Shown piece by piece: positions 40,034 to 49,667 of a DNA stretch of 52,827 bases. The stretch spans positions 10,758-63,584 of the forward strand of contig CAZNCT010000004.1 in the NCBI GenBank assembly GCA_964571615.1, in the 5' to 3' direction. The DNA is from an uncultured Anaerolinea sp. (GTDB lineage: Bacteria > Chloroflexota > Anaerolineae > Anaerolineales > Villigracilaceae). Position numbers and translations under genes: made by a program. The first letter of the stretch is position 1. Every line of letters starts with the position of its first letter. The notes below the pieces were generated by a model. That model was given only the letters and a program-made list of their open reading frames with translations. It did not search any database and was not told the DNA's origin.

Positions 40034-40576
40034 TTACTCAACCAGTTGATTAAACTCAGCCCTGAAATCATCGGCACGGACAAAACCAACCCATTTTTTC
40101 ACCAGGTTGCCCGAGGCATCGAACAGGTAAAACTCCGGCTGAAAGCGAAAGCCCAACTGACGCTGTAAATCGCGGGTCGCGGGGTCATCCGCATCGAGCA
40201 AATGAAAATCTATCTTACCGGCATATTCCACTTCAAGCCCGTGCACGACGGGCGCCAGGGTGCGGCAAGTCCCTCAGGTAAAGCGGAAAAATTCAACCAG
40301 CACCGGGCGGCCTGTATTGAAATTGACCAGCGCCGGGTCGGTTGCCACCAGCGAATCACCACGCGAGGTCGGAACAGCCTGCGGAAGAGGGGCCGCAGCC
40401 AGCGGGGTGCTCTCTGCAACCGTCCCCTCCTCAGGGGTTGCAGATGCAGATTCAGCCGGTGGTACATTTGTCGTGGTTGCAGAAGGCAAAGGGGGAACAG
40501 CAGGTTGAGAAACCGCCGACGGGGCGCAAGCGGCCAGAAGAAAAGCCAGCGCCAGCACAACACTCAATAAACGCAT
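40034..40576 (-). CDS. thioredoxin-fold lipoprotein with an in-frame TGA at the first position of the redox motif (candidate UxxC selenoprotein)
   Basis: SD AAGGAGAGAG precedes ATG 40576. The signal peptide with lipobox is MRLLSVVLALAFLLAAC. Track ORFs 40274..40594 and 40034..40246 are in the same frame and are separated only by TGA 40276-40274. The reading is ..PVLVEFFRFT-TGA-GTCRTLAPVVHGLEVEYAGK... Confidence 0.6.
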
Positions 40577-40624: not shown

Positions 40625-41545
40625 CTAATATTCAAGCAGAATTTGAGAGATTTTGCCAGCAATGCCCGAAAGATCACTCACCCCTACAAAGGCCGCCCGG
40701 GCATACGGATTTCCGACCAAGAGCAAGGGCACCGGGTTGGCAGTATGTCTGCGGGTTGCCAGGTCTTCGAGGTTGCCGTGGTCAGAGGTCAGCACGATAA
40801 GGTCGCGGGTCATATCCCAGGATGCGCACAGGCCCGCGAACACAGAATCAAATTGCTCGAGTAGGGCCAGCGCGTTGGGCATATCCTGTTCGTGACCGGC
40901 GTAATCGCTCAGCCAGTATTCAAAGAAAGAAAAGTCAAAAGTGCGCGCCAGGTCAGCCAGGCGGCGGCCCGCTTCAGCGGGGGAAAGCAGCGGCATCTCT
41001 GGATGATTCAAGCGGTCACGCCAGCCCTGACCCGTAAAATCGGCAGAAATAGCGCGGCCCGCCAGCAAGTCCTGGTCGCTAAAAAAGGGCAGGCCTGCCC
41101 GCGAAACAGCCAGGGGAATGGCAGAAAAAAGACGCCGCCCCGATTCAATACCGGCGAAATAGCCTGGAGGGTAAGCATTCAGGAGCGCGGCTCGTTTACC
41201 AACCCGCGCCAGTGCGCCAAACAAACCGCCGTCTTGCAAAAAGGCCGCAACTTCAGGGTTGGGTTTGGGGCCATAGTGATACCCCAGAGCAGCCGGAACG
41301 TTTTCCCCCGTCAACAGCACCGCCTGACCCGTGGCCGATTGAGGCAATCCGCGCACACCGAGGCAGGCATCAATCGCTAACAAATCGGCCTGGAGGCCCT
41401 GAAAAGGAGCGGAACCAGCAACCAGCCTGCGCCCGCCCAGGAGAGATTCTAAAAAGGGCATTTTGGCAACGGCAAACGGGTTACGCGTCCGGTCGTCATC
41501 ACCCAGCCCAACACCATCGAGAAAAAGAAACAGAATGCGCGTCAC
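40625..41545 (-). CDS. alkaline-phosphatase-superfamily metalloenzyme (cofactor-independent phosphoglycerate mutase or phosphopentomutase-like)
   Basis: 306 aa. The N-terminus is ILFLFLDGVGLGDDD and the C-terminus is LTSDHGNLED, matching the metal-binding motifs of this superfamily. Confidence 0.7.
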   Translation of the reverse strand: MTRILFLFLDGVGLGDDDRTRNPFAVAKMPFLESLLGGRRLVAGSAPFQGLQADLLAIDACLGVRGLPQSATGQAVLLTGENVPAALGYHYGPKPNPEVAAFLQDGGLFGALARVGKRAALLNAYPPGYFAGIESGRRLFSAIPLAVSRAGLPFFSDQDLLAGRAISADFTGQGWRDRLNHPEMPLLSPAEAGRRLADLARTFDFSFFEYWLSDYAGHEQDMPNALALLEQFDSVFAGLCASWDMTRDLIVLTSDHGNLEDLATRRHTANPVPLLLVGNPYARAAFVGVSDLSGIAGKISQILLEY

Positions 41546-41551
41546 AGAGCC

Positions 41552-42121
41552 TTAATCGCGGCCAAACCAGAACCAGGATGCTTCGCGCCCGCCGGGGTCA
41601 AAACCGTCCTGGCGGTGGCGCAAATGAAAATGTGAGGCAATATCGGCAATTTCGGCATCTGACAGCCCAACCGTTGCTTCACTGCCCTGGTTGCGCATGG
41701 CATACAAGAGCCAGGTTCCGCCAGGGACCAGAACGCGGCTGAGAGTCTTCAGGTAAGCAGGCCGCAGACGGGCATGAATGCCATGAAAACAGCCAATGTC
41801 GAGGGCCAGGTCAAAGGGGCCAATGGCGTCTGGCAGACGGGTGACATCATCCACCAGAAATGTGACCGGCAGATTGGCCTGGCGGGCTTTTTGGCGGGCG
41901 CGCTCGATGGCGACGATGGAAAAATCGACCCCGGTAACATGCCAGCCATGCCCGGCCAGCGTCAGAGCATTGGTGCCGGTGCCACAGCCCAGGTCGATGG
42001 CCCGGCCCGATGGATGATTGCGGATAAATTCAAGCAGTTCGGGCGGGCTGATGCCGCTGTCCCAGGGTGGACGGCGAAAGGCATACCACAGGTTAAAAAA
42101 CCAACGGCGCAGCAGGTTCAT
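41552..42121 (-). CDS. class I SAM-dependent methyltransferase
   Basis: Motif I is AIDLGCGTGTNALTLA. Confidence 0.85.
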   Translation of the reverse strand: MNLLRRWFFNLWYAFRRPPWDSGISPPELLEFIRNHPSGRAIDLGCGTGTNALTLAGHGWHVTGVDFSIVAIERARQKARQANLPVTFLVDDVTRLPDAIGPFDLALDIGCFHGIHARLRPAYLKTLSRVLVPGGTWLLYAMRNQGSEATVGLSDAEIADIASHFHLRHRQDGFDPGGREASWFWFGRD

Positions 42122-42124
42122 AGG

Positions 42125-42613
42125 TCAGGGTTGAGATAACTCCTGGCGCAGACGGGCCTCGTCAAAAGAGCCGATGGTGCGCCAGCGTTCGACACCGCCG
42201 CCATCGATGAAGATGAAAGTCGGCGTAAACTGAAAACGATAGACCGGCGCCAACTGCACGCCAACCGGTTCCTGAACATTAATTCGCAAGACAATTAAGC
42301 GGCCCGCAAATTCGGCTTCGATGGCATCAATCGCAGGTTTGAGGGCGATGCAGGCAACGCAATACGGCGACTGGAATTCGAGCAAAACCGGGGTGCCTTG
42401 TCCAATCATGGCCTGCACTGCGGCGGCTTCACCTGCCAGTTCGGTTTGGGTCGGCCTGAGATAAAAGTAAAGGCCAATAATGGCCGCAAACAGGCCTGCG
42501 ACTGCCAGCACCTCGGGCAGGCGTGGTTTGCGCCAGAAAAGAGCCAAACCAACAGCCACCGCCAACCCGGCCAACAGCCAGACGGCGGAGTAATATTGAA
42601 GTCCGTCAAACAT
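42125..42613 (-). CDS. membrane-anchored thioredoxin family protein (CVAC motif)
   Basis: 162 aa with two N-terminal TM helices. The thioredoxin fold reads PVLLEFQSPYCVACIALKP. Confidence 0.8.
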   Translation of the reverse strand: MFDGLQYYSAVWLLAGLAVAVGLALFWRKPRLPEVLAVAGLFAAIIGLYFYLRPTQTELAGEAAAVQAMIGQGTPVLLEFQSPYCVACIALKPAIDAIEAEFAGRLIVLRINVQEPVGVQLAPVYRFQFTPTFIFIDGGGVERWRTIGSFDEARLRQELSQP

Positions 42614-45014: not shown

Positions 45015-45056
45015 ATCACGATGCCATTCACGCAGGATGGCATCGTGATTGTTTAT
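45015..45056 (+). terminator. 13-bp perfect hairpin after the EF-G gene
   Basis: ATCACGATGCCAT-TCACGCAGG-ATGGCATCGTGAT followed by TGTTTAT. Confidence 0.65.
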
Positions 45057-45065
45057 AATTACTTT

Positions 45066-45980
45066 ATGAATGCCACTTCCCCTGCCAGCCTGACGGTTGT
45101 TGTTCCGGCCTACAACGAATATGACTCTCTGCCAAATTTTGCCCCGGCACTGGTGGAATTTTGCCTGGCTCGCGGCTGGCGGCTGGTTTTCGTCAATGAC
45201 GGCTCATGCGATGGAACAGGCGAATTTCTGGAGGGTCTGGCCCAGACCCCGCAGGTCTGCGTCGTGCATCACCGCCTGAATCGTGGCTATGGCGGTGCGC
45301 TCAAAACCGGCATCCGACAGGTTGAGACGCCCTACCTGGTGACAATTGACGCGGACGGACAACATCAAATGGAGGACATTGAAACCGTTTTTCAGTTTAT
45401 GCTGGCCTAGGATGCCGATATGGTGGTCGGCAAACGGGATGAAAGGCAAAACCCTGACCTGTATCGTTCGCTGGGCAAAAAGTTAATCCGCACGTTTACC
45501 CGAATGCTGATGCCGCTGCCAATCAACGACCTGAACTCGGGGTTCAAACTCTACCGCACCGGGTTGGCCCAGCGTTACATCAACATTTGCCCGAACAGCA
45601 TGGCCTTCAGTGATGTGATTACACTGGTCTTTCTGAACGAGCGCAACCTGGTGCTGGAACATCCCATTCGGGTGGCGGCGCGCAAGGGTGGCAAAAGCAC
45701 CATCACCGCCTATACAGCGTTTGAAACAGTGGTCGAAATTCTCAACATTGTCTTGATGTTCAATCCGCTGCGTGTCTTTCTGCCGCTGGCGGCGGCCTGC
45801 ATTCTGGTCGGCGCAGGCTGGGGCCTGCCGATTATCCTGATGGGGCGCGGCGTCAGCGTGGGGGCCATGCTGGCCATTGTCAGCGGGCTGATATTTTTTG
45901 TCGGCGGGCTAATTGCCAGTCAGTTATCGGCTCTGCGCCTGGAACGTTTGCAAGACAACATCAAACCGCCCGGCCCATGA
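45066..45980 (+). pseudogene. GT2 polyprenyl-phosphate glycosyltransferase (GtrB/ArnC/DPM1-like) interrupted by an in-frame TAG at 45408-45410
   Basis: LTVVVPAYNE...VNDGSCDGT...IDADGQHQ, then ..FMLA-TAG-DADMVVGKRDE.. continues in the same frame into two C-terminal TM helices. Track ORFs 45021..45410 and 45420..45980 share a frame. Confidence 0.65.
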
Positions 45981-48683: not shown

Positions 48684-48714
48684 ATGGCGTTTGCCGCCGT
48701 TCTTTTTGTTTTCC
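48684..48714 (+). terminator. candidate attenuator terminator in the cys leader
   Basis: Stem AUGGCG/CGCCGU (4 G-C pairs plus U.G and A-U) with a 5-nt loop, followed by UCUUUUUGUUUU. Confidence 0.35.
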
Positions 48715-48773
48715 TGCCCGGGCAGGGAGACAGGTTCAGTTGGTTTTTTATTTTTATCACTTTCGAGGAGACT

Positions 48774-49244
48774 ATGAGCGAAATCACCACAAAAGTTGAC
48801 CACGCCGCGCTGAAAGCCAACCAGTTGACGATTATCGGCCTGAATGTGCTGGCGTTTGTACTCAATCAACCCTGGCTGGCCGCGCTGGTTGCAGCGGTGA
48901 TGCTGGCCGGTGCACTGGCGGGCAAGCCGTTCTTTGGGCAGGCGGTTCGTCAGGTTGTCCGCTATCAGCCCGATGTCATCACTGACAACCCTGAGCCACA
49001 CCGCTTTGCCCAGGGCCTGGGCGGATTGTTCATGCTGGGCGGCGCGCTGGCGCTGTTTGCGGGCGCAGGCGTGCTGGGCTGGAGCCTGGTCTGGATGGTC
49101 ACCGGGCTGGCCGCACTGAACGCTTTTGGCGGGTTCTGCGCCGGGTGCTTTATGTACTACTGGCTGGCCCGTTTTGGCGTGCCCGGGTTTGCGAAACAGG
49201 CCCCAGCCGGAACAGTTCCGGGCTTTCGTCCCAAGGAAGGTTAG
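48774..49244 (+). CDS. DUF4395 domain-containing membrane protein
   Basis: Start at ATG 48774 after GAGGAG. The sequence reads ..VDHAALKANQLTIIGLNVLAFV...HRFAQGLG...FGGFCAGCFMYYWL. Confidence 0.75.
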   Translation: MSEITTKVDHAALKANQLTIIGLNVLAFVLNQPWLAALVAAVMLAGALAGKPFFGQAVRQVVRYQPDVITDNPEPHRFAQGLGGLFMLGGALALFAGAGVLGWSLVWMVTGLAALNAFGGFCAGCFMYYWLARFGVPGFAKQAPAGTVPGFRPKEG

Positions 49245-49247
49245 CCG

Positions 49248-49667
49248 ATGAACGCCGAGATTTTAGAACGGCTCCTGATAGCGGCAGCCATTGGCGGGTT
49301 GGGCGTTACGGTTTTCATCCTGTTTAACCGTTTTACGCTCAAACGGGCCGAGAGCAAGGTAGCGCGCTTCTCGTCCTATCGTCCTGGCCTGCCTGCCCTG
49401 GTTTACTTCACCACCCCCACCTGCGCTCCGTGCAAGACCGTGCAACGGCCGGCCATTGAGCGCATGAAATCGAGGCTGGGACAGTGGTTTCAGGTTATCG
49501 AGGTCGATGCCAGCGCCCGGCCTGACCTGGCCCAGGAATGGGGTGTGATGAGTGTACCCACTACTTTTGTGATTGACGCCAGCGGCAAGCCGCGTTATGT
49601 CAATCATGGTGTCACCAACGCTGAAACGCTGATTAAACAACTTGAACTGGAGGACTTTTCGATATGA
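49248..49667 (+). CDS. membrane-anchored thioredoxin family protein (CAPC motif)
   Basis: 139 aa with an N-terminal TM. The thioredoxin fold reads [19 protein letters not shown]. Confidence 0.85.

Follow-up and report, generated by a model that had tools for sequence, protein, structure and literature searches.

In a stretch of 52,827 nt of DNA from an uncultured Anaerolinea sp. (GenBank assembly GCA_964571615.1, contig CAZNCT010000004.1, positions 10,758 to 63,584; the whole stretch is called the window below), a minus-strand gene for a thioredoxin-fold lipoprotein contains an in-frame TGA at the position of the first cysteine of the CxxC motif. Comparison across species makes it highly likely that this gene encodes an exported, lipid-anchored thioredoxin-fold selenoprotein, the UGA being decoded as selenocysteine (Sec, U). 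A sequence-only reading of the window had proposed Sec at this codon, and its proposal is upheld by the placement of the TGA at a nucleophilic Cys, the conservation of both flanks in 80 of 80 species-level genomes, the existence of Cys homologues, a covarying hairpin downstream of the codon and the likeness of this hairpin to one in selD genes. Taken as a whole, the locus is very probably a genuine selenoprotein gene of the well-known UxxC kind, conserved widely and mis-annotated as a matter of routine.

Gene structure and reading frame

The minus-strand frame opens with ATG at 40576, preceded by AAGGAG, and reads MRLLSVVLALAFLLAAC..GRPVLVEFFRFT up to the TGA at 40276..40274; it then continues as GTCRTLAPVVHGLEVEYAGKIDF.. 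for 79 codons to a TAA at 40036..40034. The active-site region reads FFRFT-U-GTC. The sequence-only reading had described a frame that runs on beyond a TGA standing in place of the first CxxC cysteine, and this description was confirmed. It had also aligned the codon with two paralogues in the window (42125..42613, minus strand, CVAC; 49248..49667, plus strand, CAPC), and in both the first Cys does fall on the TGA; the hairpin that it reported, GCCCG-UCGUGCA-CGGGC, was found at 40253..40237, 20 nt past the UGA. The features of the gene are as follows, with the evidence in brackets; nucleotides marked + are counted from the U of UGA, and P0002 is a Cys-containing orthologue described below. SECIS stands for selenocysteine insertion sequence, and pLDDT for predicted local distance difference test.

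40034..40576, minus strand: complete gene, from ATG at 40576 to TAA at 40036..40034, for a thioredoxin-fold lipoprotein of 180 residues with proposed Sec at residue 101 (Pfam; orthologues)
40526..40576, minus strand: lipoprotein signal peptide with lipobox L-A-A-C, the Cys17 codon at 40528..40526 (read from the sequence)
40370..40525, minus strand: Pro/Ala/Thr/Glu-rich low-complexity linker, residues 18-69 (sequence; low pLDDT in the P0002 model)
40037..40369, minus strand: thioredoxin domain, residues 70-180 (Pfam; PDB alignment; P0002 model)
40274..40276, minus strand: in-frame TGA, proposed Sec101, corresponding to the first, nucleophilic Cys of CxxC (alignments; conservation)
40265..40267, minus strand: TGC, Cys104, resolving Cys of the U-G-T-C motif (sequence; TGC in 82 of 82 sequences, TGT never)
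40254..40266, minus strand: candidate second small hairpin, +11..+23, GCCG-loop-UGGC (RNAalifold prediction)
40237..40253, minus strand: SECIS-type hairpin, +24..+40 (comparative evidence)
40136..40138, minus strand: CCG, Pro147, cis-proline of the thioredoxin fold, Q-P (aligns with I-P of thioredoxin 'SIPT')

Conservation of the TGA codon and of the frame beyond it

A pattern scan of one genome per species gave relatives in 330 genomes, of which the best 80, almost all from metagenome-assembled genomes (MAGs) of Anaerolineales or Chloroflexota, were kept and examined. All 80 have TGA at the Sec101 codon, and the same TGA is present in six of six further independent assemblies of the window's own strain, obtained from different samples. 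In a protein search we found 13 diverged metagenome fragments (41-51% identical), every one of which ends exactly at ..VEFFRFT; four further matches were full-length, one with Cys at the site and three with W. The frame closes 78-81 codons past the TGA in 81 of 82 sequences, its end being conserved, and no frameshift or additional stop occurs among the 80 species. Past the TGA the residues are conserved and the synonymous sites vary, for example Arg+4, encoded by CGT, CGC, CGG or CGA, and Thr+2, for which four codons are used; in our reading, this pattern leaves no room for a genuine stop codon, a pseudogene or an error of sequencing. The sequence-only reading had suggested looking for Cys or TGA in orthologues, and had considered downstream decay or the appearance of TGC or TGT on resequencing as damaging to its proposal. 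The orthologues carry TGA, the downstream codons are conserved and the other assemblies of the strain agree with the window.

With this agreement among assemblies and species, the TGA can hardly have arisen as an error of sequencing or assembly, or by a nonsense mutation of TGC or TGT confined to this strain. The window does hold one case of that sort: an in-frame TAG at 45408..45410 on the plus strand splits a GT2 glycosyltransferase gene (45021..45980), and a same-strain assembly (L001; L numbers denote the loci fetched) has CAG (Gln) at this site and an intact glycosyltransferase gene of 311 aa. The TAG could be a nonsense variant at the strain level or else the result of misassembly.

Equally negligible, in our estimate, is the possibility that TGA is a sense codon throughout the genome (genetic code 4 or 25). 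Some gene calls of the Joint Genome Institute (JGI) do translate the orthologous TGA as W (P0003-P0005). However, TGA is the stop codon of 11 of the 34 other well-defined genes in the window, and of this very gene in 14 orthologues; its meaning is therefore context-dependent, and genome-wide reassignment is ruled out. A scan of the window for further in-frame TGA candidates gave none that was convincing and none that was conserved. The Trp forms themselves were rejected as natural variants, since the DNA of P0003 (L088:102-665) has TGA where the JGI gene call has W, translation having been made with a code in which TGA is Trp; P0004 and P0005 are presumed to be alike. Such W-bearing records could mislead homology-based checks for Sec/Cys pairs.

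A further explanation is that the TGA is a true stop, so that the gene would produce a truncated lipoprotein of 100 residues, with or without a separate C-terminal piece of 70 residues, or would be a decaying pseudogene. This corresponds to what gene callers annotate: the sequence-only reading had predicted that annotation would split the gene, and the public records indeed consist of a 100-aa 'hypothetical protein' and a 70-aa 'thioredoxin-related protein'; every public record checked has either the two fragments or the spurious W. A GTG at 40246 could also start the second piece in the window. However, the stretch GTCRTLAPV between the TGA and this GTG, which includes the second active-site Cys, is conserved as protein across the 80 species, neither half alone would be expected from the structural model to form a thioredoxin fold, and decay over such a divergence with no frameshift or extra stop is not credible. 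We thus consider termination at the TGA very improbable.

Three contigs with this Anaerolineales gene are filed under MAGs of other groups, namely Gammaproteobacteria (L043), Micrarchaeota (L074) and Herpetosiphon (L071). The first is nearly identical to a locus of Chloroflexi CFX5 (L040), and all three are probably mis-binned.

The hairpin downstream of the UGA

In the window the hairpin reads GCCCGU-CGUGC-ACGGGC, an extra U-A pair extending the stem to 6 bp with the loop CGUGC; the usual form in orthologues is GCCCAUG-GUU-CAUGGGC, with 7 bp. Its start falls within the spacing rule of bSECISearch, which is 16-37 nt. We aligned the region in 79 sequences (78 of them distinct), numbering the bases from the U of UGA. 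Bases 24-30 pair with bases 34-40 in 97.1% of cells; with one arm displaced by 1-3 bases, the figure drops to 12.6-51.1%. Double changes occur at three of the seven stem pairs (16 cells), and the covariation score was reached by none of 500 shuffles. At pair 28:36, 70 distinct sequences have A-U and eight have G-C, with no intermediates, the codons being Met ATG with His CAT in one state and Val GTC with His CAC in the other. Pair 25:39 is C-G in 71, U-A in six and U-G in one; here a Pro-to-Ser change (CCC to UCC) is offset by a synonymous change of GGG to GGA. Pair 24:40 has changed from G-C to A-U twice. In a neighbour-joining (NJ) tree built without the hairpin codons, the pair switches are scattered over several separate groups, and thus do not represent a single inherited event. 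G31 and U32 never vary: the loop reads GUU or GUG, and in the window C-GUG-C.

The synonymous sites of the stem are frozen. At Pro+8 the codon CCC is used by 73 of 74 sequences; at Gly+12, GGG occurs in 75 of 82 and the compensating GGA in the remaining seven. Pro and Gly positions in other parts of the gene, taken as controls, draw on all four codons. Homologues of the Cys type that encode identical A-P-x-V-H-G-L residues retain only 3-5 of the seven pairs, and Gly+12 is invariant in the Sec forms only. The RNA structure therefore does not simply follow from the protein sequence; any constraint would rather be imposed by the hairpin RNA on the protein.

As in the SECIS elements of E. coli fdhF and of Moorella, the hairpin lies directly 3' of the UGA inside the open reading frame and has G-U in a small apical loop. 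It differs from them in the position of the loop (+31..+33 here, about +23 there), and its stem sequence is unrelated to theirs. More generally, a bacterial SECIS element is described as a stem-loop that closely follows the UGA within the coding sequence and has G in its small apical loop (PMC1088965); the stem at +24..+40 and the small G-containing apical loop agree with this description. The SECIS call had been rated weak in the sequence-only reading. With its conservation, compensatory changes and frozen synonymous sites, the hairpin at 40253..40237 proves to be a conserved, predicted SECIS-type element.

We also considered a larger three-way RNA structure. The four pairs of the second small hairpin (+11..+23) are retained by each of the 82 sequences, one of which has A-U for G14-U20, a one-sided change. 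RNAalifold adds an outer helix between 40230..40233 and 40281..40284, formed by CGCUU before the UGA and AAGCG at +44..+48, and Glu+14 is GAA in 81 of 82 sequences. The pairs of this larger structure are mostly kept but are fixed by coding, with almost no covariation, and we did not adopt it beyond leaving it as possible.

Selenocysteine machinery and the selD gene

The window and loci L001-L088 were searched by tblastn with E. coli SelA, SelB and SelD as queries. The single match was a selD gene in L012, from an Anaerolineales MAG, located 1.7 kb from the orthologue on the same contig and 39% identical to E. coli SelD; the L012 orthologue groups near the window clade in the NJ tree. This selD (L012:2460-3530, plus strand) has an in-frame TGA of its own, at the position of E. 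coli Cys17 (SSCAG-U-ASK), and the same TGA is found in all five distinct Anaerolineales selD loci fetched (L012; L089:8737, L095:9965, L097:3877, L098:215). Public gene calls start the Anaerolineales selD genes after this TGA (about 320-325 aa). One of these selD genes is on contig DYPU01000022, which belongs to the same MAG as DYPU01000103, the carrier of orthologue L035.

The selD TGA is followed by a hairpin, GGCGCAG-GU(G/U)-CUGCGYC. The Sec form of SelD (TIGR00476, UxxK) is unrelated to the lipoprotein in fold and function, and its hairpin starts 26 nt past the UGA instead of 20 nt. Nevertheless the design, a TGA followed by a 7-bp stem and a GUN loop, is common to both. The occurrence of this design behind a TGA at an established Sec/Cys position in two unrelated genes would thus point to one SelB that recognises the hairpins of both. 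A Sec-containing selD does imply a Sec trait.

Several points weigh against decoding of the UGA as Sec, or against the redox role that we attach to the protein. Neither the window nor the fetched loci yielded selA, selB or tRNA-Sec: ARAGORN predicted no tRNA in the window and no tRNA-Sec in L001-L094, the surroundings (±10 kb) of three selD genes contained no selA or selB, and there were no sel genes in the additional flanking sequence. Only selD was found in related genomes, and selD alone is no proof of the Sec trait; moreover, the assignment of L035 and L089 to one MAG hinges on binning. As for the hairpin, the 48 nt past the UGA in the window fold no better than shuffled sequences (z = +0.63; 148 of 200 fold as well) and no Rfam family matches in the window, so that the case for it comes from the comparison across species, and it has no bulged U, unlike the SECIS of E. 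coli fdhF. With respect to function, an operon inference was rejected, as the neighbourhood is not conserved beyond near relatives, and it is from the fold alone that we infer a redox role, a partner and a substrate.

Part of this could be explained by readthrough of the UGA without Sec, in which a near-cognate tRNA would insert Trp, Cys or another residue and the hairpin would be a mere stimulator. The missing SelA, SelB and tRNA-Sec, and a hairpin that is short and thermodynamically unremarkable in the window sequence, are in its favour. However, the site is that of a nucleophilic redox Cys, the classic position of Sec; selD of the same lineage has its TGA at a known Sec/Cys site with the same hairpin design; and the sole natural replacement is Cys (TGC) and not Trp, the W in the JGI proteins being artefactual. 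Furthermore, A. thermophila and single-cell genomes of Anaerolineales are reported to encode Sec-specific elongation factors (SelB; PMC4959059). We therefore hold readthrough without Sec to be improbable, and prefer decoding as Sec.

Anchor, linker and fold of the protein

With U replaced by C in the query, the protein scored 41.1 bits against the Pfam thioredoxin model PF00085 (cut-off 23.5). In a PDB search the TGA coincided with the leading Cys of the WCGPC motif of classical thioredoxins, and Q-P with the cis-proline; Q146 and P147 are invariant in the protein alignment. A lipobox-like motif (regular expression [LVI][ASTG][GA]C) is present in 77 of 80 complete orthologues, with a near-match, LNAC, in L085, and the distance from the lipobox Cys to the Sec ranges from 64 to 94 residues.

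For the structure we used the AlphaFold2 model of the Cys orthologue P0002 (49% identical) in place of the window protein. In this model, blocks of 10 residues from about residue 80 onwards have an average pLDDT >90, the linker is low, and Cys92 lies just before helix 93-108 (helix 1). The top Foldseek matches were classical thioredoxins, with a target-normalised TM-score of about 0.8 and a root-mean-square deviation of 1.1-1.7 Å. The beta-alpha-beta-alpha-beta-beta-alpha order of the thioredoxin fold, the motif at the N-terminus of helix 1 and the cis-proline are thus seen in the model and the alignment. Assignment to a narrower family did not succeed: the protein scored 39.7 bits against TIGR01068 (TrxA equivalog, cut-off 96.8), and is not a canonical TrxA; 23.5 bits against TIGR00385 (DsbE, cut-off 123.15), below that family's threshold; and 24.6 bits against NF041057 (cut-off 190), covering only profile positions 2-106 of 247. 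The ResA and TlpA models gave weak matches, in Cys homologues only. No curated NCBIfam cut-off was reached by this protein or its Cys relatives.

The predicted role is most likely that of an anchored extracytoplasmic thiol-disulfide oxidoreductase. In the mechanism that we propose, the UGA at 40276..40274 would be read as Sec during translation, the hairpin at 40253..40237 acting as a bacterial SECIS that would recruit SelB, GTP and Sec-tRNA(Sec) when the UGA is in the A site. The protein would then be exported through the Sec translocon and lipidated at Cys17, and the linker of about 50 residues would hold the domain on the outer side of the cytoplasmic membrane. In this location Sec101 would be the attacking and Cys104 the resolving residue, with cycling between selenol/thiol and selenenylsulfide, so that extracytoplasmic disulfide substrates might be reduced or exchanged; the reaction's direction, its substrate and its electron donor are our suppositions.

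Sec, Cys and redox-dead homologues

A search of 1.84 billion representative proteins gave many homologues, 35-48% identical, with the same build: a lipoprotein signal, a long linker, and ATDP..EFFAFW-CxxC..MAP..LE..YLDIDDP. Among the best 150 (P0144-P0293), 51 have W-CxxC and 56 are without both Cys, the latter having W-DxxS (27), W-SxxS (26) or W-NxxS (3). This implies that a large part of the wider lipoprotein-thioredoxin family may, judging from the motif, have a non-redox role. The Sec forms are the FFRFT-U subgroup, and the distribution is the ordinary one of Sec/Cys pairs, with Sec fixed in one branch. We accordingly rejected the statement that Sec is nearly universal in the family; in view of the abundant FFAFW-CxxC and redox-dead homologues, it is true of the FFRFT subgroup only.

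The sole Cys form found in the FFRFT subgroup is that of L087 (L087:48-563; P0002), with TGC. Its hairpin, GCCCAUG-GUG-CAUGGGC, is still complete, a sign that Sec may have given way to Cys only recently; there is a precedent for such 'fossil' SECIS elements (PMC1794560).

Two genes of the Cys type (L100:1-670 and L101:1-744) adjoin a divergent gene of the AhpC/Redoxin family and lgt, for prolipoprotein diacylglyceryl transferase. Downstream, L100 also has genes for a CsoR-like repressor, an HMA protein and a P-type ATPase.

Gene neighbourhood

Directly upstream on the same strand (40625..42613, minus) are genes for a transmembrane-anchored thioredoxin (CVAC), a TPMT/TehB-like S-adenosylmethionine-dependent methyltransferase, and a metalloenzyme-superfamily protein resembling phosphoglycerate or phosphopentose mutase. 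This string is kept only in the nearest relatives of the window: among 63 loci with enough upstream sequence, five or six match each gene (L007, L008, L009, L035, L037, L047 and L067). Elsewhere the gene stands on its own, its neighbour on the upstream side being, at 40 loci, a divergent aldehyde-dehydrogenase-like gene. Since conservation is confined to the nearest relatives, the function cannot be read from the context. TehB/TPMT enzymes methylate compounds of selenium and tellurium, and by this analogy a selenium link of the methyltransferase neighbour is conceivable. No CcdA/DsbD partner was seen in the annotated parts of the window. The third thioredoxin-like gene of the window (transmembrane-anchored, CAPC) follows a gene for a DUF4395 membrane protein with a 3-nt gap (48684..49667, plus strand), and the two may form a separate membrane redox pair.

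Relation to known families

UxxC thioredoxin-fold proteins are the commonest class of bacterial selenoproteins. Like other members, the present protein would have Sec for the first CxxC Cys at the N-terminus of helix 1, and it has a SECIS-type hairpin within the open reading frame and Cys homologues. In contrast with them, it is predicted to be exported and lipid-anchored with a long linker. Compared with thioredoxins, its motif is FFRFT-U-[GS]TC, with Thr in place of Trp. ResA, TlpA, DsbE/CcmG and pneumococcal Etrx share with it an anchored extracytoplasmic thioredoxin-fold domain and a CxxC-type motif; they belong to the AhpC-TSA/Redoxin branch and use Cys, unlike this protein. The reductase role proposed here is modelled on proteins of this type.

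The closest concept is NF041057, the Rcas_1661 family of thioredoxin-like (seleno)lipoproteins, which likewise comprises UxxC lipoproteins in Sec and Cys forms; from its name, Rcas_1661 is presumably from Roseiflexus, a genus of Chloroflexota. The domain of the present protein is about half the length of that family's, and it is not a member by the hidden Markov model. A 2026 review (PMC13188914) lists NF041057 as 'DsbG-like protein, UxxC', and its UxxC classes include Thioredoxin (PF00085), Thiol:disulfide interchange protein (PF13098), Redoxin and DsbA-like. Large automated catalogues such as BSepDB (PMC13326102) may already list the gene under a generic thioredoxin label.

Significance

The finding leaves the general view of selenoproteins unchanged, as the UxxC thioredoxin-fold kind, including a (seleno)lipoprotein family of Chloroflexota, was already established. 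A wider proposal is that the protein represents an uncatalogued family of exported seleno-lipoproteins, near-fixed as Sec across Anaerolineales, whose relatives outside have Cys or have lost the redox motif; we regard this as rather unlikely. If it were true, the whole order would depend on Sec decoding for an extracytoplasmic task that is ill-served by Cys. In the near relatives of the window this task might be tied to the handling of selenium or metalloids, as hinted at by the TPMT/TehB-like methyltransferase and by selD beside the L012 orthologue. The family would moreover illustrate clearly how a SECIS element can shape a protein sequence, with Pro+8 and Gly+12 fixed as CCC and GGG.

In practice, a family model with a Sec column would correct the split records, the pattern scan having matched 330 species genomes. 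The hairpin is a well-supported SECIS of Chloroflexota, of a design common to two unrelated genes, and could help to train predictors beyond the E. coli type. For the organisms themselves, the gene is evidence of widespread Sec decoding in Anaerolineales, which are abundant in sediments, wastewater sludge and groundwater.

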